A stretch of DNA of 64,000 bases from a virus (Duplodnaviria > Caudoviricetes). Position 1 is the first letter of the stretch. Each line of letters begins with the position of its first letter. The position numbers and the translations under genes were made by a program. The notes below the pieces were generated by a model. That model saw only the letters and a list, made by a program, of their open reading frames with translations, did not search any database and had not been told where the DNA came from. This document shows, piece after piece, positions 3,914 to 33,441 of this stretch. The stretch is from the IMG/VR virus record IMGVR_UViG_2867134129_000001, positions 1-64,000 of that record. One strand, given 5' to 3'.

Positions 3914-3987
3914 TCCGCCTCATGCGAACGCCCCCGCCGAGGCGAATTCGGCGGGGGCACCCAACCCCATCATCCCAGGAGGACCCC

Positions 3988-4496: not shown

Positions 4497-5339
4497 GTGA
4501 CCAACCCACGCCTCGCCACCGACACCGACAACGGCCGGTACTACACCGACCCCGCCGGCGGCCCCGCACTCATCTCCGTCACCAACGTCCTCGCCACCGC
4601 CGTCGCCAAACACGCCCTCATCCCGTGGGCCGTCAAGCTCACCACCGAACACATCCTCGACAACCTCACCGAGGTCAACGACCGCATCGACGACGACCGG
4701 CCCGCCCTCACCCGGGAGATCAAGGCCGTCCACCGCCAGGTCAAGGAAACCGCTGGCGACCTCGGCGACCGCATCCACACCGCGGCCGAACACCACCTCC
4801 TCGGCTCGCCCGTCGCGGACGACCCCGAGGTCGCCCCGTACCTGGCCCAACTCGTCCTCTGGCTGGCCATGTGGGGCGTCGACCTCAACGAGCACATCGA
4901 AGCCACCGAGATCACCGTGTTCCACCGCCGGCTGGGCTATGCCGGAACCGCTGACCTTCTGATCTGGCTGCCCACAGGGCCGGACCGGTCGATGGAGCTG
5001 TGGCTCATCGACTTCAAGACGTCCGCCACCCGCAGCGCAAAGAGCGTCTACCCGGAGAACACTCTCCAGCTCGCCGCCCTTCGGTACGCGGAGACCGTTC
5101 TCCTCCCCGACGACACCGACGCCCCCATGCCTGCCATCCAGCGCACCGGCGTCCTCAACCTCAGGGCCAAGTCTCACGCCCTCGTCGAGATGCCCGCCGG
5201 CCGGGACGCGCACGCCGCGTTCCGTGGCCTCCTCCAGGGCGCCCGGTGGCTGCACGACGCACCGTCCACCTACCCCGCACTCCTCGCCCCGGGCCAGACC
5301 GCCCCGGCTCGTAGGCGCACAACCCGAAAGGCAACCTGA
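4497..5339 (+). CDS. PD-(D/E)XK (RecB/Cas4-like) phage exonuclease
   Basis: ISVTNVL, GDRIH, ATEITVF..YAGTADL, LIDFKTS, LQLAALRYA motifs. Confidence 0.85.
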   Translation: MTNPRLATDTDNGRYYTDPAGGPALISVTNVLATAVAKHALIPWAVKLTTEHILDNLTEVNDRIDDDRPALTREIKAVHRQVKETAGDLGDRIHTAAEHHLLGSPVADDPEVAPYLAQLVLWLAMWGVDLNEHIEATEITVFHRRLGYAGTADLLIWLPTGPDRSMELWLIDFKTSATRSAKSVYPENTLQLAALRYAETVLLPDDTDAPMPAIQRTGVLNLRAKSHALVEMPAGRDAHAAFRGLLQGARWLHDAPSTYPALLAPGQTAPARRRTTRKAT

Positions 5340-5340
5340 C

Positions 5341-6375
5341 ATGGGTAGCCGCATCCGAACCATGCAGAAGCAGGCCCGCGAACTGGGCCGTCTCCGTACC
5401 GGCTACAGCGTCCCGAGCGACGACCCGAAGAAGCGCGACCGCCCCGTGAAGTCGAAGACGTGGGTGCTCAGCAGCCACGCCGAGCACTACGTGGCCGCCG
5501 CCGCCGAGGCATGGGGCGGGGAGGTGGAGCGCTGGCAGCCGCAGGGCAATGGCGCCCCCCAGTTTCGTGTCATCACCAAGGCCGAGCAGCTCGACGCGAT
5601 CCTTCCCCCGGGTGACCCGCTGTCGCAGGCCAACGAAATGTGGAACAAGGGCGGCTGCGCCCGCCGCTGCGACGGGATGACGGAACAGATCAGCCGCCAC
5701 CCCTGCCTCTGCCTCGCCGAGCACGGCCCCGAGTGGCACCTCCTGCGGCAGGAACTGCGCACCAAGGACAAGGTCTGCGCGCCTACCTCCCGCCTCAACG
5801 TCGTGCTGCCGGACATGCCGGACGTCGGTGTCTGGCGAGTCGAGACGCACTCGTTCTACGCAGCCAACGAACTCGCGGGCACTGTCGACATGGTGCTGTC
5901 CGGCTCCGGCGGCAAGGGCTTGGTCCCGGTCCTCCTCCGCATCGAACCAAGGACGCGCGTTGCTGGGGGGAAGACGAAGCACTTTCCCGTGGTCGTCGTG
6001 GAGGTGCGCGGCGTCACTACCCGGCAGGCCCTTACCGGTCCGCTGCCGACCGCGGTTGCTTTGGACCCGACCGGGGCCCGCGCGGTCGCTGCGATCGAGG
6101 CGCCACGCCCGGACTACCTGGCGCTGGCCGAGGGCGCGCTCACGGTCGACGACGTGCAGGACGTGTACCGCAACGCCAATGCTGCGGGCCACCTGAACGA
6201 CGACCTCGTGGCCGCGCTGAAGCGGAAGGCCGAGGAGCTGAAGAACCCGGCCCCGAAGCCCAACCCGAAGCCTGACCCGGAGCCAGACGAGGACGGCGCC
6301 TACCCCGCTGAAGTCGTCGAAGAGCCGCCATCCAGCACCTGGCCGGCCGTCGCACAGGCCGGATCCGCCACCTAG
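5341..6375 (+). CDS. Gp3-like / recombination-directionality-factor-like protein (sits in the recombinase slot)
   Basis: MQKQARELGRLRTG N-terminus, CARRCDG and CxPTSRLNVVLPD..GVWRVETHS motifs. Confidence 0.7.
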   Translation: MGSRIRTMQKQARELGRLRTGYSVPSDDPKKRDRPVKSKTWVLSSHAEHYVAAAAEAWGGEVERWQPQGNGAPQFRVITKAEQLDAILPPGDPLSQANEMWNKGGCARRCDGMTEQISRHPCLCLAEHGPEWHLLRQELRTKDKVCAPTSRLNVVLPDMPDVGVWRVETHSFYAANELAGTVDMVLSGSGGKGLVPVLLRIEPRTRVAGGKTKHFPVVVVEVRGVTTRQALTGPLPTAVALDPTGARAVAAIEAPRPDYLALAEGALTVDDVQDVYRNANAAGHLNDDLVAALKRKAEELKNPAPKPNPKPDPEPDEDGAYPAEVVEEPPSSTWPAVAQAGSAT

Positions 6376-10140: not shown

Positions 10141-10325
10141 GGCCAGAGTGTAAGCCATCACCAACACTTCCTTCCTGTTCATCCTGGCCAATCTTTAAAG
10201 AAGTGTGGCAGAGTGGACCCCAGGAACGCCAGACATTGCCGACGGCGAATCACGAAAACCGCGGCCCGACAGGGCCTGGTTCCGTGCGCCCGGATTCGGC
10301 AGATACAGCCCACGGGAGGGCTCTG

Positions 10326-12029
10326 ATGTACCGAAGCGACGGCAACGCACTCACCGTCATGGACTGGTTCTGCGGAGCCGGAGGCAGCAGTCAAGGCGCA
10401 CACTCCGTCCCCGGCGTCCAGGTCACCCGCGCCGCGAACCACTGGGCGAAGGCCATCGACTCCCACGAAGCGAACTTCCCCGAAGCCAGCCACTACCGCG
10501 GCGACATCCGCACCGCCCCCGTCTGGGACTGGCCCGTCACCGACATCTTCTGGGCTTCGCCGGAGTGCACCAACTGGTCCGTGGCGAAGGGGAAGCGCCG
10601 CAACTTCGACACCGCCATGCAGGGGAGCCTCCTCGACCTCCTCGCCGACCAGAACGAGGAGGAGCAGGGCGACGCAGAGGAGGAGTCGCGGGCCCTGATG
10701 GAGGAGGTGCCGCTGTACCTCCGCGGCGTACAGGAGCGTGGCGGGCTCGTCAAGGCCGGGGTCGTCGAGAACGTCACCGACGTCCGGGCCTGGGACCAGT
10801 GGGACCGGTGGATCGGCGAACTCCACAAGATGGGTTACCTCACCCGCATCATCGCCCTGAACTCGATGCACGCGAACCCGCGGTCCGTGCACGCCGCACC
10901 CCAGTCCCGCGACCGGCTCTACGTCGGCTACTGGCACAAGTCGCTGGGCCGCACCCCCGACTGGGACAAGTGGCTCCGCCCCCGCGCCTGGTGCTCCGGC
11001 TGCGACACCTGGGTGCAGGCCATGCAGGTCTTCAAGACCCCCGGCCGCGACATGGGCCGCTACCGCACCCAGTACGTCTACCGCTGCCCCTCCACCACCT
11101 GCCGCAACCAGATGGTCGAACCCGAAGCACTCCCCGCCGCTGCGGCGATCGACTGGTCCATCCCGGGGCAGCGCATCGGCGACCGGGCCAAGCCCCTCGC
11201 CGACAAGACGCTCGCCCGGATCCAGGCCGGGCTCAAGAAGTTCTCCCAGCCCGTCCCGATGATGGTCCCGGCCGGCGGGACCTGGAGAGACACGGCCGTC
11301 AGCGTCGGCGAACCCATGGGCACCCGCACCACCCGGGAGAACGACGGGCTCATGGTGCCGCCACTCCTCGTTCCCGTCGAAGGCCGAGACGGCAAGGAAG
11401 TCCGTTCTGTCAACGACCCGCTGCGCACCATGACCACCCGCAACGAGACCGGGCTCGCCTGGCTCCCGTTCATCGCCGAACTCCGCGGCGGCGGCTCCGT
11501 CGCCCGGTCCGTCACCGACGCCCTCGCCACCGTGACCGCCTCCGGAAACCACCACGGGCTCGTCATGCCCGAACTGCCCGCCATGGTCATGCGGAACAAC
11601 TCGGTGCGCGGTGACGCCGGATACCTGAGCACCCCGGTCACCGAACCCGTGAGGGCGCTCACCACGGCTGGCCACCAGTCGCTCGTCACCTGGAACGACA
11701 TCCTCGTCCCCTACTACACCAACGGCACCGCCCGCACCGTCCGCGAGCCCATCGGCGCTCTCTCCACCCGCGACCGGTACGCACTCGTCTGCGGCGACGT
11801 CGACATCAACGACGTCCGCTTCCGGATGCTCGAACCCCACGAGATCGGGCGGGCCATGAGCTTCGCCGACGACTACATCGTCCTCGGCTCCAAGCGCGAC
11901 AAGGTCCGCCAGTACGGCAACGCCGTCACCCCCAACGCCGCCGAGATCATCCTCTGCGCCCTCGTCGAAGCCGTCACCGGCGAAGAGCTGGAGCGGTACG
12001 CCGAACCCCAGCTGGCAGCCGCCGCGTGA
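10326..12029 (+). CDS. C5 cytosine DNA methyltransferase (orphan)
   Basis: Motif I DWFCGAGG, motif IV ASPECT, motif VI VENV, motif VIII PQSRDR, motif X YGNAV. Confidence 0.92.
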   Translation: MYRSDGNALTVMDWFCGAGGSSQGAHSVPGVQVTRAANHWAKAIDSHEANFPEASHYRGDIRTAPVWDWPVTDIFWASPECTNWSVAKGKRRNFDTAMQGSLLDLLADQNEEEQGDAEEESRALMEEVPLYLRGVQERGGLVKAGVVENVTDVRAWDQWDRWIGELHKMGYLTRIIALNSMHANPRSVHAAPQSRDRLYVGYWHKSLGRTPDWDKWLRPRAWCSGCDTWVQAMQVFKTPGRDMGRYRTQYVYRCPSTTCRNQMVEPEALPAAAAIDWSIPGQRIGDRAKPLADKTLARIQAGLKKFSQPVPMMVPAGGTWRDTAVSVGEPMGTRTTRENDGLMVPPLLVPVEGRDGKEVRSVNDPLRTMTTRNETGLAWLPFIAELRGGGSVARSVTDALATVTASGNHHGLVMPELPAMVMRNNSVRGDAGYLSTPVTEPVRALTTAGHQSLVTWNDILVPYYTNGTARTVREPIGALSTRDRYALVCGDVDINDVRFRMLEPHEIGRAMSFADDYIVLGSKRDKVRQYGNAVTPNAAEIILCALVEAVTGEELERYAEPQLAAAA

Positions 12030-18331: not shown

Positions 18332-18793
18332 TCAACGTTTCGTGGGCCAGATTTCATGCCGAGCATCCCACCACACCACATGAAAGACGTTCCCGACCAA
18401 AAAACCCCAGAGCCGGCCAGCGCTCCCGATCCGCAACTTCCAGATCTGCGTCATGTCGGATAAACCCAACGCGTCAAGCCGGGCCAGCGCGACCCTATTC
18501 GGCAAAGTATGAACATCGTGACGCTTCCCAGGCCATTCGCCCTGATGGAACAGCTCGTGCATCGTCTGGCTCTCGAACTTCGCCATATCCTGAAGCAACG
18601 CCATCAAACGCTCATGATCCAGCGACACGAGCCCCCACGGGCCATCCAAGTCCAAATGGCTGAACCGCCAGCACACCCGCTCCTCAGACGTCCTGCTGCT
18701 CGGCAGGAGCAAGGCCGGATCCCCAGTGCGCTTCTCGTCCGAGATAGACCCGGGCGGGACGCTGACCTTCTTCCCCTTCCCCCCTTTGCCCAT
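18332..18793 (-). CDS. Putative toxin (RelE-like / MAG6450-like) of a Panacea TA pair
   Basis: C-terminal LRI..GRLWGF..NVFHVVWWDARHEIWP; coupled directly downstream of the Panacea gene. Confidence 0.7.
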   Translation of the reverse strand: MGKGGKGKKVSVPPGSISDEKRTGDPALLLPSSRTSEERVCWRFSHLDLDGPWGLVSLDHERLMALLQDMAKFESQTMHELFHQGEWPGKRHDVHTLPNRVALARLDALGLSDMTQIWKLRIGSAGRLWGFLVGNVFHVVWWDARHEIWPTKR

Positions 18794-19251
18794 CAGTCTT
18801 CGCGGCCCGCCAACGCACCGAAGAAGTCGGCGATCTCCTCATCCCGCAGCTCTTCGTTGCTGCGCTGGAGGTCGTCCTCCAGGCCCGCCCGCCGCCGGGC
18901 ATCCAGCCAAGGGCCGGGCCGATGCGTCATCGCGGACAGCTCATGGGCAGAAAACGCCTTGAAACTCTCCAGCACGGCGTCGATCGACTCACGCTCGCCC
19001 ACATCCAGCTTCGACGGGTCGCCGTGAATATCGCCGCTCTCAAGTCGGAACTGGCCGCGGTGCTCGGCGTACAACTCGTACACCACCGGCCCGTTCGCCC
19101 ACGCCTCGAAACGCTCCGGGAACAGCTGCCGGTCCTCCCAGGCCAGGTGGTACCCGTAGGCGAAATAGCAGAGCTTCTGCAACTTCATCGCGGACATCGG
19201 ACTGTCCTTGCGCAGTATGTACGCGGCCACGTCCTGAACGCTCGCTGTCAT
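18793..19251 (-). CDS. Panacea (DUF4065/SocA-like) antitoxin
   Basis: DVAAYIL, MKLQKLCYFAYG, FEAWANGPVV, ELSAMTH..PW. Confidence 0.9.
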   Translation of the reverse strand: MTASVQDVAAYILRKDSPMSAMKLQKLCYFAYGYHLAWEDRQLFPERFEAWANGPVVYELYAEHRGQFRLESGDIHGDPSKLDVGERESIDAVLESFKAFSAHELSAMTHRPGPWLDARRRAGLEDDLQRSNEELRDEEIADFFGALAGRED

Positions 19252-19575: not shown

Positions 19576-19995
19576 TCACGACGCCTCACCCTCCTGCGGC
19601 GGGTAGGCGATGGCGAGCCCCGGCACCTCCTGCGCAATCCGGGCAACAACCGCCCGGTGCCAGGAAGCCGGGAACGGAACCTCGGGGTGCGCTGCGTGGT
19701 ACTCGGCATCCGTCCGGTACGTGAACACCCCAGGCCCTGGGAGGTCAAGAAGCTTGCTGACGGCGCCAGCCACGAACTCACCGGTACGGGCCTCCAGGCT
19801 CTCCATCTCCAAACGCACCCCGTCAGGGACGGCGTACTTGCCCTGCTCCCAGTGCCGCACCGTGCGGGGGGACACCCCGAGGTGGGCGGCGAGCCAGTCC
19901 CCGGTCAGGCCGAGCCAGTCCCGGACCACACGGAACTCGGCGTCCGTCATCCGCTCATCGTCGGACATCCCGGGAGGGTCGGTGTGCTCAGTCAT
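19576..19995 (-). CDS. Aca2/YdiL (DUF1870)-like HTH regulator
   Basis: MTDAEFRVVRDWLGLT..LAAHLGVSPRTVRHWEQGKYAVPDGV and C-terminal TYRTDAEY..W..AVVAR. Confidence 0.75.
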   Translation of the reverse strand: MTEHTDPPGMSDDERMTDAEFRVVRDWLGLTGDWLAAHLGVSPRTVRHWEQGKYAVPDGVRLEMESLEARTGEFVAGAVSKLLDLPGPGVFTYRTDAEYHAAHPEVPFPASWHRAVVARIAQEVPGLAIAYPPQEGEAS

Positions 19996-27113: not shown

Positions 27114-28466
27114 GTGACGACCAGCCCGCCCCAGGTGAACGGCCGCCCCCGCACTCTGCCCGTCCTGGGGGAGTGGCAGGCCATCACCAAAGCCACCGAA
27201 TGGCCCGCCCTCACCGAGCCGGCCGAACCTGCCGGGCCGAAGTCGGACCTGATCGCCGAAGCCGAAGCCGAAGCGGTAAGGGCCAGGGCGCACGCCGAGG
27301 CGGAAGAGCGCCGCCTCAAGGCCCAAGCCGAAGCCGAAGCGGTACGCATCAAGGCCGCCGAGGAGGCCCGGAAGCTCAAGCTGGCCAACGACAAAGCCGA
27401 AGCCCGCGCCATCGAAGAGCAGGCTGCCCGGGATGCCCGCATCGCCGAGTCCGAGCGGAAGAGGGCAGCAGCCGAGCGCGGCCAGCAGGACGACGAGCGC
27501 GCCCACTGCGAGCAGCAGCAGAACGAGGCCACCGCCGAAGCCGAGATTGCTAAGGCGGCCAGCACCTGGCGGTTCTACGCGGTCATGTTCTACGCCGTGT
27601 GCGCGGTCGTTGCCCTGCCGGTTCAGATCGCTGCGTTCTGGGACCCGAACGCCTGGTGGCTGGTGATCGCCCCGCTCATGCTCGAAGGCGCCGCGCTCGT
27701 CGTCACCAAGGGCGCCGCCGCAGCTGTCGCGGCGAACCGGCCGCACTGGCACTACCGCACCGTCGCCTGGCTGTTCGCGGCCATCGCCGCCGGGATCAAC
27801 CTCAAGCACGGGTTGGACGCCTTCGACCCGGCCACCGCGATCGGCACCGCTTTCGCATCGCTCGCCGGCCCCGGTGTGTGGGACCTTCACGAGCACGGGC
27901 GGATCCGGCGGCGTGACGGGGTGCTCACCCGGCGGGAGCGTCGCGCGGCGAAGAAGGCCGCGAAGCGAGCGGCTGCCGAGCAGGTCACGGCGAAGCTGCA
28001 CGAAGCCGAGCGGCAGGCCCATCTGGAGAACGCCGCACGCAAAACCGCCAGCAAGCTGGACGCCGACCGCAAGCAGATGTTCCCCCAGGTCCACGAGCAC
28101 GCCCTGAAGCTCGCCGCGGACCTCGGCGAGACGGCCATCACCCCGGCGATCTGGCGGCAGGCTAAGCGCAACGTTGAGGGCACCGACCCGGGCGAGTCAG
28201 CCGACACGATCCGCATGCGCAACGCGGCCGAGATGAGGGTCGAAGCCGCCCGTCTCAAGAAGCCCGTCAGCACCCTCAGCAAGACCACGAATGCGCAGCG
28301 TGCCGCCCATCTCCCCCCTGCCTCCACGAAGCCCCGCCCGAAGCCCATTCCCCCCCGCCGGAAGCGTGGCGACAGCACCCCGTTCCATCCGGCCGCGAAG
28401 CGTCTTGCGGCCGACACCGCACGCCGGTCCATGACTGTCCGCATCAACGATGAGGAGAACCGATGA
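27114..28466 (+). CDS. DUF2637/Spd-like membrane protein with coiled coils (transfer/spreading)
   Basis: Coiled-coil N-terminus, about 4 TM segments, AAGINLKHG; directly upstream of traA. Confidence 0.65.
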   Translation: MTTSPPQVNGRPRTLPVLGEWQAITKATEWPALTEPAEPAGPKSDLIAEAEAEAVRARAHAEAEERRLKAQAEAEAVRIKAAEEARKLKLANDKAEARAIEEQAARDARIAESERKRAAAERGQQDDERAHCEQQQNEATAEAEIAKAASTWRFYAVMFYAVCAVVALPVQIAAFWDPNAWWLVIAPLMLEGAALVVTKGAAAAVAANRPHWHYRTVAWLFAAIAAGINLKHGLDAFDPATAIGTAFASLAGPGVWDLHEHGRIRRRDGVLTRRERRAAKKAAKRAAAEQVTAKLHEAERQAHLENAARKTASKLDADRKQMFPQVHEHALKLAADLGETAITPAIWRQAKRNVEGTDPGESADTIRMRNAAEMRVEAARLKKPVSTLSKTTNAQRAAHLPPASTKPRPKPIPPRRKRGDSTPFHPAAKRLAADTARRSMTVRINDEENR

Positions 28467-28975
28467 ACACCCCGCCCCGTCCCCGCACCGCACCCACGAA
28501 CGGTGCCGTCCACAACAGCAAGACGCGCACCGGCGGAGGCTTCAACCCGTCGCTCGGATTTTCCGTGAACAAGACCGTCATGCAGGGCGGTACGGGGGCT
28601 GGCGCAGGAGCTGCCGGCAAAACCGGCGGGAAGGTCCCCGGCTCCGACTTCATGTCCAACGAGGACATCCGTGCGTTCTGCGAGTACCTCCGCAAGGAGT
28701 CCCGGAACCGGGCCACCGAGCGGGCCATGGACGCCGACCACCTCGAAGCCGTCCTCCGCACCATCCCCGACGCCGGCGGCAGCCTCCACGGCTCCCGGGC
28801 CCGGGCCCGCCGTGTGTCCCGGTGGCTGAAGAAGGTCGCCGCTGCGGAGAAAGCAATCCAGAAGTACTCCGCGATGGTGTACGGCACGTTCGAGCGCGAG
28901 TACGAGTCCGACCTGCGAAAGGTCGGCAAGGGCCGCAACCAGCCCCCGCGCACCAGCAAGTTCGGCTGGCGCTAA
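28463..28975 (+). CDS. traA: Streptomyces plasmid transfer protein TraA-like
   Basis: DFMSNEDIRAFCEYLR..SRARARRVSRWLKK..FEREY; position upstream of traB. Confidence 0.7.
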   Translation: MNTPPRPRTAPTNGAVHNSKTRTGGGFNPSLGFSVNKTVMQGGTGAGAGAAGKTGGKVPGSDFMSNEDIRAFCEYLRKESRNRATERAMDADHLEAVLRTIPDAGGSLHGSRARARRVSRWLKKVAAAEKAIQKYSAMVYGTFEREYESDLRKVGKGRNQPPRTSKFGWR

Positions 28976-29017
28976 ACCCCACCCGTACACCCCATCACCC
29001 GCTGAAAGGCCACACCC

Positions 29018-29245
29018 ATGAAGCAGACCTGGACCGCAACAACCATCGCCGAAGCCCTCAACCTCCTCGACGCGGCGACGAAGCAGCTCGAAGCGCAGGC
29101 GCTCGCCCTGGAGCCCGGCAGCTTCCACGAGCGTAAGGAAGCCGAGCGCGCCACCCCGATCCACCTCGTCATCGACTTCGACCTCACCGACCTCATCCAG
29201 CGGACCACCGACAAGCACTTGACCCGACAGACCAGCCACGGCTGA
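29018..29245 (+). CDS. Small hypothetical protein between traA and traB
   Basis: AAAGG RBS; 75-aa ORF. Confidence 0.5.
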   Translation: MKQTWTATTIAEALNLLDAATKQLEAQALALEPGSFHERKEAERATPIHLVIDFDLTDLIQRTTDKHLTRQTSHG

Positions 29246-29279
29246 TCGCCCAACTCGAAGAAATTAGGAGAACACCCCC

Positions 29280-31283
29280 GTGGCTGACAGCCCCAAGGCC
29301 AACCTGTGGAAGGCCACCACGCACCCCCGCATGAGGCCCTGGCTGACAGTCGCCGCCGAGGTCCCCGCCACCTTCGCCGCCCACCACTACTGGGGCGACT
29401 CCGTACCCGCAGCAATCGGCCTCACCGTCGCAGCCGGAGTACTGACCGCCGCAACCTGGTGGGCGGGGGAGGGGACCCGGCCCGGACGCCGGATCCACGC
29501 CACCCTGTCCACCGGCCTCGGCACCTCCTACCTCGTCGTCGGAACCGCCGTCGGCCCGTTCGACCCCGCCCTGGCCTCAACCCTCGTCATCGGCGGCGCC
29601 GTGGCCGCAGGGTCGTGGAACATCCGCCAGGCGCTGCGCGTCAACGTCGACCCCCAGAAGTCCGGCGGCAGCGCCGAGACCGGGATCCTCGTCAAGGCCA
29701 TCGGCGACGCCAAGGTCGCCCTCCGCGGCAAGCCGAAAATCGAACCCAACAAGGTCACCGTGCCCCTGCAACTGGCCGCCGGGCAGGTCACCTCCGACGA
29801 CCTCGGCAACCGCATCAAGCACATCGCCGGCGAGCTCGGCGTCTCCCCGAACAGCATCCGCGTCATCCCCGACCCCGACGACGCAGCCCGCGCCACCCTC
29901 GTCGTTGTACCCAAGGACGAACTGAAGACCAGCACCATCTGGCCTGGCCCGTCCAACCCGGGCGGCAGCATCACTGACCCGATCGCCATCGGGATCTACG
30001 AGGACGGCGAAGTGGCCGTCCTGTGGTTCCCCTTCGACTCGCACACCAAGAGGAACGCCACCCACTTTCTGGCCGCGGGCATGAACGGCTCCGCGAAGTC
30101 CACCGGCATCAGCGTCGCCATGGCCGAAGTGCTGACCAAGCCCGACGCCATTGTTTGGGCCGTCGACCCCTCCAAGGGGCAGCAGACCTTCGCCCCGTTC
30201 CTGCCCCACCTCGACTGGGTCGAGATGACCGAAGCCGGCGGCAACGAGATGATCGACGCCCTGTCCCAGGTCATCACCGCCCGCGCCAACCACCTTGGCC
30301 AACACGGCTACAAGAACTGGACCCCGGACGCGTTCGACCAGCTCGGCATGCCTTACATGATCGTGTGGATCGAGGAAGCCGCGAAATTCTTCCGCAACGG
30401 CACCGAAATGGAAGGTCTGGTCATGGAGGCCCGATCCGCCGGGATCAGCGTCATCATCAGCCTCCAACGCCCCTCCGCCACCAGCATGCCCACCGACGTC
30501 CGCGAGCAGCTCGGCGGCGTCCTGTGCTTCGGCGTGAAGGGCTCCACCACCGCCGACATGGCCCTCCCTGACGACGTCCGCGACGCCGGGGCCCGCCCTG
30601 AGGCATGGGAGAACCGCAAGCCCGGCTACGCCTACCTCGTCGCCCCCGGCGTCGACGAGGAGCGCTACGCCACCCCCCTGCGCACCTACCTCATCGACGA
30701 CGACCAGATCACCGGGGCCCTTTCCATCCTGCCCCGCACCCCCATCGACCCCGTCACCGCCGCCGCAGCCGGTGACGCCTACGCCAACCGCACCCGATAC
30801 GACGCTGACACGCCCCTGACCAGCAGTGACAGCACCCGACAGGAGACAACCGTCATGTCGAACAACGAGAACGAACAGGCCGAGAAGGCGCTGCTGGAAA
30901 AGCAGGTCGACCGGGAGATCGACGCCATGGTCGGCGACGACCCCGACGACGACGGGTCCGTACCCGACGTCGACGCCGAACAGGAGATTCCCGCCCCGAC
31001 CGAGACATGGTCGTTCGGGCAGGCACCGGCGCCGTCTGTAGAGAACACGCCGCAGGCTGGCATGGAGGCGCTGATGGCCATGCTCGACGAGTTCCGGACC
31101 GAGGAGAAGGAGTTCATCGGGCCGCGGGACTTCGGCCCGTTCGGCAAGGGGGAGCGCATCGGAAGGTCCCGATCCTGGGTGTCAATGCAGCTGGGAGACC
31201 TATCAGACGCTGGAGTTCACCTCCAGGAGACCGAGCAGCCGGGCGTCTACCGGCTGCTCTACCCGGAGCTGGCGGCGGTCTGA
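29280..31283 (+). CDS. traB: TraB-type FtsK/SpoIIIE conjugal DNA translocase
   Basis: N-terminal TM helices, Walker A GMNGSAKS, VDPSKG, Walker B IVWIEEAA, ARSAGIS..SLQRP, C-terminal wHTH GRSRSWVS. Confidence 0.88.
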   Translation: MADSPKANLWKATTHPRMRPWLTVAAEVPATFAAHHYWGDSVPAAIGLTVAAGVLTAATWWAGEGTRPGRRIHATLSTGLGTSYLVVGTAVGPFDPALASTLVIGGAVAAGSWNIRQALRVNVDPQKSGGSAETGILVKAIGDAKVALRGKPKIEPNKVTVPLQLAAGQVTSDDLGNRIKHIAGELGVSPNSIRVIPDPDDAARATLVVVPKDELKTSTIWPGPSNPGGSITDPIAIGIYEDGEVAVLWFPFDSHTKRNATHFLAAGMNGSAKSTGISVAMAEVLTKPDAIVWAVDPSKGQQTFAPFLPHLDWVEMTEAGGNEMIDALSQVITARANHLGQHGYKNWTPDAFDQLGMPYMIVWIEEAAKFFRNGTEMEGLVMEARSAGISVIISLQRPSATSMPTDVREQLGGVLCFGVKGSTTADMALPDDVRDAGARPEAWENRKPGYAYLVAPGVDEERYATPLRTYLIDDDQITGALSILPRTPIDPVTAAAAGDAYANRTRYDADTPLTSSDSTRQETTVMSNNENEQAEKALLEKQVDREIDAMVGDDPDDDGSVPDVDAEQEIPAPTETWSFGQAPAPSVENTPQAGMEALMAMLDEFRTEEKEFIGPRDFGPFGKGERIGRSRSWVSMQLGDLSDAGVHLQETEQPGVYRLLYPELAAV

Positions 31284-31456
31284 CACCTAGGTGTCAGAAG
31301 CTAACACCCCTTCTGACCTGCGGTAACACCGGATTCACACCTGAATTCCATGATCATTTGTCGATGGAGGTGTGAATCCGGGGTGTTAGCGCCCTCGCGA
31401 GGGTCGATCTCTTAGGTCATGCGCGTGCGCGCGCGAAGTTGGCACCTTCTGGCACC
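31280..31456. repeat. clt-like locus: 8-bp (C/T/G)T(A/G/C)ACACC repeats and inverted repeats after traB
   Basis: ctgacacc-ta-ggtgtcag palindrome, ctaacacc, gtaacacc, ttcacacc, ggtgtgaa, ggtgttag, ttggcacc, ctggcacc; 14-bp IR ccggattcacacct/aggtgtgaatccgg. Confidence 0.7.
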
Positions 31457-31497
31457 TTGGCTCTGTCAATCTGCATAAAAGGTAAGGAAGTTCTCAA

Positions 31498-32323
31498 ATG
31501 GGTCAGCCTCTCGGCTCGTCCTCCTTCGCACCGCAGTGCGCGGCCACCGCAGGCGAGAAGCCATGCCGCGAGGCACCCTCGATCGGCTACCCGGTGCCTC
31601 TGTGCGAACCGCACCGCCTTCGAGTCGCCCTCGACGCAGTCCCGGCTGTGCTCGGACGCGCGTTGGGGAGCGTGGCAAGCCCCGTCGCTGGCCTTGACCT
31701 CAATATGGAGACCGGACGGGTGCTGAACGCACCGCCCGCGACATTCAACGAAGGCTTCATACGCGGGCGGCACGAAGCCGTCGTCTACTTCCTCCTCAAC
31801 GGAAGTCGCGTGAAGATCGGCTATCCAGTCACTCACCGCACGCCTTCGCGCCCTTGCCCTGAGCGACACGGCAGTCGTGCTCCTCCTGAGCGGAGGAAGG
31901 CTCCTGGAAAGGGCGCTGCACGTCAAGTTCGCTGCGTCTCGGGTCAAGGGAACCGAGTGGTTCGAGATCACTGCCGACCTTCTGCGATACATCGGGGATC
32001 GGCTGGCCCGGCCGGCGGTGAGTGTTCAGGCGATTGCTTCAAGTGCGGCCACCAACGAGGAACCTGACCTCAAGGCCAAAAATTCTCCCCGACCACAGAT
32101 GAACGATGCGCGACAAGCGCTCCTGCGCCTCATTGACCAAGCCCAAGCAGAGGGGCAGGACTGCGTCAGCCCACGTCACCTCTGGGGGAAACATCAGCAC
32201 ACCCTGCGCCGAAGCCGCCCGTGGGTGAGCGCCGAGCTCTCCCGACTGGCCGACGAGGGAGTTATCTGCCGGACAGAAGAAGCTGGCATCTACTCCTTCA
32301 CCCCAGAAAGGACAAACTCGTGA
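31498..32323 (+). pseudogene. Frameshifted zinc finger + GIY-YIG (T5orf172-like) nuclease + TraB-like wHTH
   Basis: VVYFLLNGSRVKIGY in one frame continues as LTARLRALAL..LERALHVKFAASRVKGTEWF in another; shift near 31825-31832. Confidence 0.75.
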
Positions 32324-32751
32324 AAAGACCCGAAGCGGACGGAGGTCGAGCGAAAGTTCTAGCCGCCGCACTCCGCACCTGGACCACCGTCGACAACGAC
32401 CCCGAACCCACCGTTGCACGCCTCGAAATCCGCTACCCACCCCACTGGGCGTTCACCTCCACCAACAACATCACCGCCAGGCAGCAGGGCCGCCTTCTCG
32501 CGTTCCTTCGCGACGACCTCGCCGAGAACCGGCCCTCCCACTCCACCCCCGAACGCGCCTCCGCCGTCATCCACGGCCTCCTCGCCGAGCATGCCGCGGC
32601 CGGCCGTGACCGCATCACCACTGCCGATCTCACCGAAGCCGCACCCCGGATCGGCCGCTCCCGCACCTGGATTGCAGCCCACGTCACCGACCTCATCGAC
32701 GCCGGGGTGCTCCATGAAACCCGGCGCCCCGACACCTTCCGCATCAACTAG
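32320..32751 (+). CDS. Hypothetical protein with C-terminal TraB-like winged helix
   Basis: GTGA-coupled; RIGRSRTWIAAHVTDLIDAGVLHETRRPDTFRI. Confidence 0.7.
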   Translation: MKRPEADGGRAKVLAAALRTWTTVDNDPEPTVARLEIRYPPHWAFTSTNNITARQQGRLLAFLRDDLAENRPSHSTPERASAVIHGLLAEHAAAGRDRITTADLTEAAPRIGRSRTWIAAHVTDLIDAGVLHETRRPDTFRIN

Positions 32752-32760
32752 GAGGCCCTC

Positions 32761-32955
32761 GTGTTCACCGGAACCCCTGCCGAGCTTCGCCGCCGTGAGA
32801 CACGGGCTGCCGAGCACGCCGCCCAGGTTGCCGAGCTGCTCAACGCCATCGGCGACCTAGGCATCGGCGTGATCGTTCCCGCGTCGAACCGGGTCATTGG
32901 CCCCGGCTTCACCATCCGCCCCGTGAACGGCCGCTGGGCCGTCGACAACCACTAG
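32761..32955 (+). CDS. Small hypothetical protein
   Basis: AGGAGG RBS. Confidence 0.6.
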   Translation: MFTGTPAELRRRETRAAEHAAQVAELLNAIGDLGIGVIVPASNRVIGPGFTIRPVNGRWAVDNH

Positions 32956-32964
32956 GAGTTCACC

Positions 32965-33441
32965 GTGCAGCTGCCCGAGCAGCCCGTCGCCGGGCAGCCC
33001 GACCCCGCCATCCGCCGCAACGCCGACCAACTCATGGCCGCCATCAACGAGATCCAGGTCGAGGAGGCCACCTCGTACCGAGACGACACCCCGCTCCCCG
33101 CGGTCGGCCTCACCCCGCCCGTGCCGCAGCCGGGCCCGCCCCCGATGTCGCAGTGGGCCATCGACAGCAGCGGAGTTCTCAAAGGCCTCAGCGTCGCGTC
33201 CCTCCCGGTCGGGGTTGCGGTGTGGCTCGTCGGCCAGGTCGACCCGCTGACCCTCGGCATCATCCTCGGATCGCCGACTGCCGTAGCCCTCGCCGTGGCC
33301 CGTCTGGTTGCGAAGGTCAAGGACGCCAACCGGGACGCCCAGCCCGTCGTTCAGCACTACCACGGGCCCGTCACCCACGACGAGCGGACCATCAACGCCG
33401 ACGCCCGCGGGGTTTGGGCCCGCACCTCTAACAATCTCTAG
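32965..33441 (+). CDS. Spd-like two-TM membrane protein
   Basis: TSYRDDTPLPAVG.TPPVPQPG.PPMSQ motif, two TM helices, HYHGPVTHD.R tail typical of Streptomyces plasmid genes. Confidence 0.65.
   Translation: MQLPEQPVAGQPDPAIRRNADQLMAAINEIQVEEATSYRDDTPLPAVGLTPPVPQPGPPPMSQWAIDSSGVLKGLSVASLPVGVAVWLVGQVDPLTLGIILGSPTAVALAVARLVAKVKDANRDAQPVVQHYHGPVTHDERTINADARGVWARTSNNL

Follow-up and report, generated by a model that had tools for sequence, protein, structure and literature searches.

The conjugative DNA translocase TraB, a nuclease and a small protein designated P3, encoded one after another in a prophage, end in one homologous winged helix. The locus lies in the IMG/VR virus record IMGVR_UViG_2867134129_000001 (Duplodnaviria; Caudoviricetes), of which positions 1 to 64,000 were analysed and are called the window here; the window is part of a chromosome contig in a 6.99-Mb genome. 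Conjugation in Streptomyces is thought to need a single protein, TraB, which reads the repeats of a locus named clt, and at the present locus this reading domain turns out to be shared by proteins other than TraB. We favour, with moderate confidence, an account in which a plasmid-phage transfer module carries P3 as a paralogue of the TraB helix and has received a homing-type nuclease cassette putatively addressed to clt. The features that carry the argument are the following.

29280..31283, + strand: traB, encoding an FtsK-like conjugative DNA translocase of 667 amino acids; NCBIfam NF041214 with 833.8 bits (cut-off 800); winged helix-turn-helix (wHTH) at the C-terminus, about 31047-31280.
31279..31470, no strand: clt-like repeat array, from repeat finding, the clustering of WNACACC and the arrays of relatives.
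31471..32306, + strand: inserted cassette of about 836 bp with the nuclease gene, from comparison with the nuclease-free loci L002-L010 and L001.
31498..31827, + strand: N-terminal piece of the nuclease, frame 1, with a C-x8-C-x12-C-x2-H (CCCH) motif and the first half of the T5orf172 core (…VVYFLLNGSRVKIGY); corresponds to residues 1-111 of the homologue P0006 at 56% identity.
31826..32323, + strand: C-terminal piece of the nuclease, frame 2, with the rest of the T5orf172/MUG113 core and a TraB-family wHTH at about 32081-32320; corresponds to residues 112-271 of P0006 at 65% identity.
32320..32751, + strand: P3, 143 amino acids; its N-terminal domain is of helix / beta-hairpin / helix form, its C-terminal part a TraB-family wHTH (about 32563-32748); from homologues, synteny, NF041214 and AlphaFold.

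A winged helix shared by three genes

The open reading frames (ORFs) lie where the earlier note on this DNA had placed them (TraB at 29280-31283, the nuclease in two frames at 31498-32067 and 31877-32323, the third gene ending at 32751), and the likeness it had seen among their C-termini is significant both in pairwise BLASTP comparison and against NF041214, the curated NCBIfam model of plasmid TraB. BLASTP aligns the C-termini of TraB and the nuclease at E 5e-9 (20 of 51 residues identical), those of TraB and P3 at E 2e-12 (18 of 34), and those of the nuclease and P3 at E 1e-5 (10 of 22). NF041214 matches the C-terminus of the nuclease at E 5.5e-15 over profile positions 550-637 of 639, P3 at E 1e-10 over positions 561-632, and the helix of P0006, an intact nuclease homologue of 276 amino acids, at E 9.5e-14. 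No other NCBIfam family matches the nuclease C-terminus or P3 at E <= 1, and no Pfam HTH family matches P3 or the nuclease helix at that threshold. Genome-wide, the TraB model matches at just four places, namely TraB, the nuclease, P3 and the ATPase part of an unrelated 954-aa frame. A domain profile built from 22 helices (10 of TraB, 10 of P3 and 2 of the nuclease) was searched exhaustively over 1.84 billion representative proteins, in place of a word-indexed search with the domain alignment, whose matches were dominated by P3 proteins and included one TraB only; the exhaustive search yields 125 representatives at E <= 1e-3, 26 of them at E <= 1e-10. The domains are thus wHTHs of the TraB family, not generic ones.

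The three helices had been called the same. They do form one homologous family, but they represent three separate old sub-lineages, about 35-45% identical to one another, so that a shared DNA specificity is not implied by their sequences. A quick domain tree of 177 domain sequences and 74 columns, in which many forks are unresolved, unites the P3 helices in one clade (SH-aLRT 98) apart from the clade of the resident TraB (95), and places the nuclease helix outside the latter, in a poorly resolved group that also contains TraBs of other lineages; P0189 and P0191, which consist of low-complexity repeats, were excluded from the input and one identical row was dropped. Because the P3 clade is separate from that of the resident TraB, P3 is an old paralogue of the TraB helix with a small N-terminal domain attached; a recent duplication does not account for it. 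Common to the helices of TraB, the nuclease and P3 is the start of the recognition helix, R-S-R-x-W.

The gene of P3, for which the earlier note gave a start at 32221, most likely begins at the GTG at 32320, which overlaps the stop codon of the nuclease (GTGA) and yields a protein of 143 amino acids, as long as its homologues. These fall into 67 clusters of 126-147 amino acids, none with a Pfam domain and called hypothetical where named, and P3 in the circular Streptomyces plasmid pCQ4 (NC_019307) is likewise annotated as a hypothetical protein. The AlphaFold model of P3, with a mean predicted local distance difference test (pLDDT) score of 83.3, contains a canonical winged helix at residues 77-142, composed of helices at 77-93, 101-111 and 115-127 and a beta wing at 131-142 (pLDDT about 86-93). 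A Foldseek search of this model against the PDB gives nothing at E <= 0.001, the matches being generic wHTH proteins only (CRP/FNR, MarR and IclR, best E 0.033), and the ESM Atlas holds no P3 match of 0.9 or more. In the phage collection no record matches P3 or the nuclease homologue, and in the plasmid collection P3 matches NC_013449 and NC_019307 only.

P3 stands directly behind traB and its array in all 10 loci recovered (nine species genomes and pCQ4), an adjacency count that is biased, the loci having been collected through P3. L011, the metagenome contig L026 and L029 have P3 as well, and it is placed likewise in L011, L026 and genome G281. P3 belongs to the transfer module. Most likely it would bind in or beside the array, whose last repeats adjoin its own ribosome-binding site, and act as an accessory factor or regulator of transfer, a concrete candidate for a second clt-binding factor. 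A P3 homologue may be one of the 'adjacent genes' reported to be needed for the transfer of pZL12, and the pZL12 study reportedly names its transfer locus traA-traC. P3 is set apart from SpdA by the description of the latter: passages of PMC4170104 give SpdA a conserved N-terminal DNA-binding region and 12-bp sps palindromes within its gene, whereas the conserved DNA-binding part of P3 is C-terminal, which argues against membership. The pSVH1 Spd paper contains no mention of wHTH, winged or TRS, the TraB recognition sequence.

The repeat array and the nuclease cassette

The ACACC repeats to which the earlier note drew attention are real and clustered, 8 of the 25 WNACACC matches in the window lying within 31178-31388. 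They are degenerate copies of TGACACC, of which the intergenic array keeps two exact copies only; over the whole window exact TGACACC is not enriched (11 observed, 9.2 expected), and the same interval in 11 related loci holds 3-12 exact copies, both strands counted. A perfect palindrome of 10+10 nucleotides spans the traB stop codon (31279-31298), T[GAC]ACACC units form nested inverted repeats with arms at 31326-31342 and 31368-31384 (17 nt) and at 31300-31310 and 31380-31390 (11 nt), and two proximal copies of TGGCACCTT lie at 31440-31458. In the arrays of relatives the first TGACACC overlaps the stop codon of traB, and two to four more stand directly before the ribosome-binding site of P3. 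The description of these repeats as clt-like is well founded, because a passage of PMC3583192 gives TGACACC as the DC1 repeat of the pWTY27 clt, located at the 3' end of an FtsK-like tra gene and footprinted by the purified Tra protein, and the unit in the window also lies beside the 3' end of the gene. The array appears to be a bona fide, though degenerate, clt candidate.

In 42 TraB loci the start of the recognition helix was compared with the commonest 7-mers in the 300 bp 3' of the gene. TraB helices of the form SR.WVS pair with CTGACAC or CTGACGC arrays, the helix KTSSWVRRE of L042 (genome G077) pairs with CGGAACAG repeats, and the helix RDRSWVSKE of L044 (genome G204) pairs with CCGCACA, which a passage of PMC3583192 identifies as the pJV1-type repeat. 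Such pairing fits the view that TraB would read these arrays. Recognition helices and repeats change together across TraB loci and offer raw material for a recognition code. Mid-array, a further element is conserved.

31412..31435, no strand: conserved core TTAGGTCA-TGCGCGTGCGCGCGCG, alternating purine-pyrimidine, mid-array; all loci aligned by eye.

This core is kept at the same place in L001-L011, L026, L029 and L042, the last of which retains it though its repeat unit is CGGAACAG, not CTGACACC; its possible roles include those of a promoter element, of a binding site for some other protein and of a stretch prone to form Z-DNA. A scan of 31000-33000 found no sigma-70-like promoters, and the two terminator-like sites in that interval lie on the minus strand within P3 and do not exceed the number expected.

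The nuclease had been assigned to the GIY-YIG type, which is correct at the level of the superfamily; by Pfam it belongs more exactly to T5orf172/MUG113. T5orf172 is counted in the GIY-YIG clan in a passage of PMC8263062, and NCBI names the homologues 'GIY-YIG nuclease family protein'. Pfam MUG113 matches the C-terminal piece in the window with 23 bits against a cut-off of 22.3, and in the intact P0006 it reaches 36 bits and T5orf172 30.8 bits against 20. Invariant in six homologues are Y89, K98-I99-G100, R108, E130, H134 and E146-W147-F148, all of which are encoded in the two pieces in the window; catalytic roles among the conserved core residues are assigned by analogy only. A profile of the nuclease family searched against PDB sequences gives one wHTH match only (E 0.59). 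Distant members of the family keep the CCCH motif and the T5orf172 core and have other C-terminal tails. A relative with the CCCH motif, the T5orf172 core and a differing tail lies upstream of traA at L006:1376-2146, on the same element as L027 and L063.

In the window the nuclease frame breaks at 31826/31827, inside the predicted catalytic core, where 4 nt separate 'KIGY' from 'SL' and the homologues have two codons (KIG[YF]-T-x-SL), a deletion of 2 nt. Because this deletion shifts the frame in the catalytic core, the copy in this genome is judged dead or dying.

The cassette is absent from 10 of the 11 related traA-traB-P3 loci, pCQ4 included, and also from NC_013449. L011, from an IMG/VR contig, is the one other locus to carry it, at the same site and intact. 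The borders of the cassette in the window are the last repeat (…CTGTCAAT) and the ribosome-binding site of P3 (GGACAAAC), and the last codons of the nuclease read through the old P3 leader (GGACAAACTCGTGA). In pCQ4 and in eight more loci extending to this point, nothing separates …CTGTCAAT or CTGACAC from GGAGACAAAC..ATGAAA of P3. The homologues of the nuclease form four clusters besides that of the window, against 67 for P3, and no close homologue occurs in 400 sampled Streptomyces genomes, where the best is 39% identical and 4 of the 11 matching genomes match through the helix only, in TraB-sized frames. The GC content of the cassette is 0.638, and GC at third codon positions (GC3) is 0.69-0.75 in the nuclease (0.74 in L011), 0.90 in traB and 0.81 in P3. 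The two carriers also have fewer exact TGACACC copies (2 in the window and 3 in L011, against 7, 6 and 6 in their close kin L002-L004), and both repeats nearest the insertion are mutated in them. These poorer arrays would resemble target immunity, which is suggestive only.

What the accessory helices may read

In the account that we favour, TraB ends in its DNA-reading winged helix, and an array of the TGACACC type, which helices of this kind read, begins at the traB stop codon. The nuclease would not belong to the module; it would be a mobile T5orf172 cassette of the GIY-YIG superfamily that has entered exactly at the junction of array and P3. Free-standing homing endonuclease genes (HEGs) are marked by scattered occurrence, exact placement between genes, a deviating composition, exchangeable DNA-binding ends and decay, and passages of PMC10448857 describe domain swapping and clustering beside essential genes for T5orf172 homing endonucleases in phages. 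By analogy, the enzyme would be of the free-standing homing type, and its TraB-family helix would direct it to clt arrays in elements without the cassette. This logic is known from Odn (gp88) of the Vibrio phage ICP1, a T5orf172 nuclease whose DNA-binding domain copies the RepA_N of a satellite and which needs the origin iterons for cutting, as passages of PMC8263062 report. We infer that either accessory helix binds TGACACC repeats, because both genes sit at the array, because both helices have the R-S-R-x-W start, the form that in TraBs is paired with TGAC[AG]C arrays, and because Odn is a T5orf172 enzyme with a copied site-binding domain; the nuclease would cut at these repeats and home by them. 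The suggestion that the nuclease is addressed to clt therefore has a worked precedent in Odn, on the strength of those passages of PMC8263062, and is retained here in a form detached from the role in the transfer mechanism that had been attached to it.

Several points weigh against this account. The nuclease helix has 39% identity to the helix of the resident TraB and comes no closer to the other TraB helices found (33-45%); among the TraBs found no recent donor above 45% identity appears and there is no sign of recent capture, and its specificity is not readable from its sequence. A search for co-variation between accessory helices and repeat motif was negative in both informative loci, L042 and L029: the accessory helix of L042 keeps RSRPWVVAE though TraB and repeats have changed, and the P3 helix of L029 reads QTTQWLAAH though TraB and TGACACC are kept. 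The model of the nuclease has a mean pLDDT of 55.4 (70-87 in the core), and its fold matches to GIY-YIG entries are weak, with Z <= 3.0-3.8 (VIA-align) and with only 2.7-3.0 for 1ycz, 2wsh, 1ln0 and 7wme. The argument from repeat decay concerns one lineage, the window and L011 being sisters, and the nuclease-free pCQ4 also has just 3 exact repeats. An assembly error could account for the frameshift. In 9 of 25 IMG/VR loci with this nuclease family, the T5orf172 gene has a TraB-like gene within 5 kb, which could mean a functional tie instead of selfish insertion.

For the nuclease itself, the readings rank from the homing-type cassette through an Odn-like weapon, which overlaps the first, and a domesticated DNA binder to a transfer-processing enzyme, which comes last because 10 of the 11 modules do without the gene and the literature describes the transfer of unprocessed double-stranded DNA (dsDNA).

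As a weapon, which we regard as possible though rather unlikely, the nuclease would cut the clt of rival conjugative plasmids, integrative and conjugative elements of actinomycetes (AICEs) or superinfecting kin, and its own degenerate array, with 2 exact TGACACC copies only, would be spared. Odn works in this way with its borrowed RepA_N domain (passages of PMC8263062), the nuclease helix groups outside the resident TraB clade with TraBs of other lineages, and targets would be plentiful, TGACAC/TGACGC-type arrays standing behind most sampled Streptomyces TraB genes. Additionally, the helix occurs on other nuclease types, with Endonuclease_7 in P0205 and a PD-T4-3-like N-terminus in P0116 (E 4.8e-4). 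However, a selfish homing cycle explains at least equally well why the intergenic insertion is precise and its flanks conserved, why it occurs sporadically in near-identical modules and why the gene has become a pseudogene, and the presumed victim, a TraB whose helix matches closely, was not found. Such a weapon would also be risky, since the Streptomyces chromosome is said in a passage of PMC4170104 to contain clt-like sequences.

Somewhat more doubtful is the possibility that the accessory helices read something other than TGACACC, their likeness to TraB reflecting common descent only. P3 may for example work as a common small repressor or activator whose site is the conserved TTAGGTCA-(GC)n core or the promoter of its own gene, and proteins derived from the nuclease may be domesticated DNA binders like CapR, the precedent for domestication described in passages of PMC10448857. 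The lack of simple co-variation with the repeats, the separate old lineages of the three helices and the retention of the conserved core where repeats differ are consistent with this possibility, as are P0099, P0140 and P0209, nuclease-less derivatives with the CCCH motif and the helix. Set against it are the R-S-R-x-W start kept in all three helices and paired in TraBs with TGAC[AG]C arrays, the constant position of P3 directly behind such an array, and the conserved T5orf172 core residues that intact nuclease homologues keep.

The earlier note had considered linearisation or resolution, and a nuclease recruited to clt to nick, linearise or resolve circular dsDNA for TraB would be a working part of conjugation. 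The gene does adjoin clt, it would be translationally coupled to P3 through the GTGA overlap, and the proximity of T5orf172 and TraB-like genes in IMG/VR loci mentioned above could be read in the same sense. This role is nevertheless very improbable and is not upheld, given the absence of the gene from 10 of 11 related modules including pCQ4, the foreign composition of the insertion, the frameshift in the window and the statement in a passage of PMC3583192, citing Reuther et al., that TraB translocates unprocessed double-stranded DNA. That the likeness is due to chance or to the generic winged helix of many regulators, as the weak and solely generic fold matches of P3 might suggest, is refuted by pairwise E-values of 1e-5 to 2e-12, by the curated TraB model as the sole NCBIfam match, by the lack of any Pfam HTH match to P3 or the nuclease helix at E <= 1 and by a total of only 125 profile matches in 1.84e9 proteins.

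The element, the wider family and known systems

Two further genes of the transfer region precede traB.

28463..28975, + strand: traA, a small transfer gene 5' of traB; NCBIfam NF041213 plasmid_TraA, E 6e-32, 111 bits against a cut-off of 80.
29018..29245, + strand: ORF of 75 amino acids between traA and traB; BLASTP against P0145, E 3e-8.

A traA gene lies 5' of traB in 9 of 10 related loci, and the remaining contig begins within traB. Two homologues of the 75-aa ORF, P0145 and L042:1830-2498, end in a TraB-type wHTH (E 1.8e-13 for P0145 against the TraB model); the likeness is to the N-terminus of P0145, the copy of which sits downstream of traB in Streptomyces genome G077. TraB of the window matches NF041214 over nearly its full length (profile positions 4-638 of 639) and the FtsK/SpoIIIE-like family phrog_1358 at E 1.4e-15, stays below the Pfam cut-off for FtsK_SpoIIIE (13.6 bits against 24) and is 72.6% identical to the annotated TraB of pCQ4. 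In the chromosomal copy of Streptomyces sp. NBC_01590 (L004:2820-4806), traB lies in two pieces of differing frames that join at about 3953-3955, and the translocase gene seems broken. A DUF2637-like protein of the window (27114-28466) was considered as a relative of P0137 and dropped (E 0.11).

Pfam scans of the larger high-GC3 ORFs identified siphovirus-type prophage genes in the window, encoding a capsid protein, a tail tube protein, a tape measure of 2052 amino acids, Dit and a Gp37-like protein, and Pfam scans also identified a Gp3-like recombination directionality factor, a C5 methylase and Bro-N. A SocA/Panacea-domain protein (18793-19251, - strand) lies beside an HTH protein (19576-19995, - strand), with the C5 cytosine methylase at 10203-12029 (+ strand) and the Gp3-like recombination directionality factor at 5224-6375 (+ strand). 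The closest annotated DNA is that of the circular Streptomyces plasmids pCQ4 (NC_019307) and NC_013449, with 77% identity across 60% of 29000-33000. Since pCQ4 also encodes a terminase and a portal protein, this likeness indicates an element of the plasmid-phage kind, a label that for pZL12 comes from literature titles and passages, PMC3583192 among them. The window accordingly holds a siphovirus-type prophage of the pCQ4/pZL12 plasmid-phage kind with a Streptomyces dsDNA-transfer module made up, in this order, of traA, traB, the clt-like array and P3.

Among the 125 representatives of the domain, 44 have at least 561 amino acids with the domain at the very end and are TraB-like, 8 have 321-560, 25 have 166-320, 33 have 100-165 and 15 have fewer than 100 amino acids, many of the short ones being visibly TraB fragments. 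P3-type proteins were singled out by eye through their N-terminal motif (P0094, P0095, P0108, P0123, P0132, P0188 and P0071), and in the six that were scanned, all but P0071, no Pfam family was found. Architectures were drawn from Pfam scans of the 77 representatives that are not TraB-sized and from earlier matches. Eight representatives join T5orf172/MUG113 to the helix (P0100, P0104, P0120, P0139, the fragment P0157, P0004, P0007 and the window's own P0003), and these fusions stand at no fewer than two places in the domain tree. Endonuclease_7 occurs with two helices in P0205, where the domain match is weak, and the helix is joined to WhiB in P0201 and P0204, to FtsK_gamma in P0112 and to ParB-HTH in P0175. 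The N-terminus of P0116 is GIY-YIG-like by eye, its PD-T4-3 match is weak and it has no Pfam match; in P0099, P0140 and P0209 the T5orf172 core is missing, while the nuclease's CCCH motif and the helix are present. Matches to the curated TraB model at E 5.8e-10 to 5.7e-20 bear out the helix in P0116, P0137, P0145, P0099, P0201 and P0112. The helix is thus no generic regulator fold but a module of actinomycete transfer regions that has been shuffled. As an unbiased counterpart to the loci collected through P3, the domain profile was applied to the 400 sampled Streptomyces genomes and the present one; it matches in 52 of the 401, and a second helix ORF lies beside traB in four, namely this genome, G073 and G281 (P3), and G077 (another accessory gene).

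The census suggests that a nuclease or regulator has been given this helix repeatedly, as seen in the T5orf172, Endonuclease_7, WhiB, ParB-HTH and FtsK-gamma fusions. A bolder proposal, which we offer tentatively, is that the TraB helix serves as a portable 'clt address' among actinomycete elements, that P3 is an obligatory clt-bound partner of TraB, and that T5orf172, Endonuclease VII/HNH and PD-T4-3-like GIY-YIG nucleases as well as WhiB-type regulators independently took up this address to attack or control the transfer origins of rivals. If that were true, there would be a clt-directed counterpart of Odn, an undescribed layer of warfare among Streptomyces plasmids, AICEs and plasmid-phages. 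If binding is confirmed, the helices and arrays would form a natural set of matched pairs of DNA reader and site. Neither paralogues of the TraB helix nor a nuclease fused to such a helix were found described in full-text searches, which covered literature outside the subscription journals.

The locus can be compared with several known systems. Like the TraB-clt pairs of Streptomyces plasmids (TraB of pSVH1 with its 8-bp TRS and TraA of pWTY27 with TGACACC), it has a translocase that passes the TraB model and a TGACACC array at the stop codon; unlike them, it has further proteins with the same helix, recognition being ascribed in the passages on pSVH1 and pWTY27 to TraB alone, with no second or third such protein mentioned there. 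From the relatives of the pZL12 transfer locus it differs by the nuclease cassette, which pCQ4 and NC_013449 lack. A C-terminal winged helix of an FtsK-type translocase that reads 8-bp repeats also recalls FtsK gamma and KOPS, an analogy drawn in passages of PMC3583192 and PMC4170104. However, Pfam FtsK_gamma (PF09397) misses TraB, both nuclease pieces and P3 at E <= 1, and since P0112 contains both FtsK_gamma and the TraB-type helix, the two are distinct families at the level of sequence.

Free-standing homing endonucleases of phages include the Seg-type GIY-YIG proteins of T4. The nuclease shares with the T5orf172 HEGs of ICP1-like and T5-like phages a modular build, a position between conserved genes, sporadic presence, a tendency to decay and swappable DNA-binding domains, as passages of PMC10448857 describe them; it differs in its host, a transfer module of a Streptomyces plasmid-prophage, and in a TraB-type binding domain combined with an N-terminal CCCH motif, and its homing is only putative.

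The closest parallel is Odn, together with the related phage T5orf172 nucleases that carry RepA_N, in which, according to passages of PMC8263062 and PMC10448857, a nuclease is likewise fused to a domain homologous to the protein by which a mobile element reads its cis-acting repeats. Where Odn has the N-terminal RepA_N of a replication initiator, the nuclease here has the winged helix found at the C-terminus of a conjugative translocase; its presumed site is the transfer locus clt where that of Odn is an origin, and it shares one element with the homologous protein and its site. The resemblance to TraB is old, at 33-45% identity, whereas Odn matches the PLE1 RepA_N domain with 42% identity over 93% of its length in the passage that compares them, and the nuclease activity here is putative and the present copy frameshifted. 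That a T5orf172 nuclease can carry a borrowed site-reading domain is thus already known from Odn, and the fusion described here would extend this principle from the conflict of phage and satellite to conjugative transfer sites. What appears to be new is the address itself, the clt reader of a conjugative translocase, and the conserved paralogue beside it that is not a nuclease.

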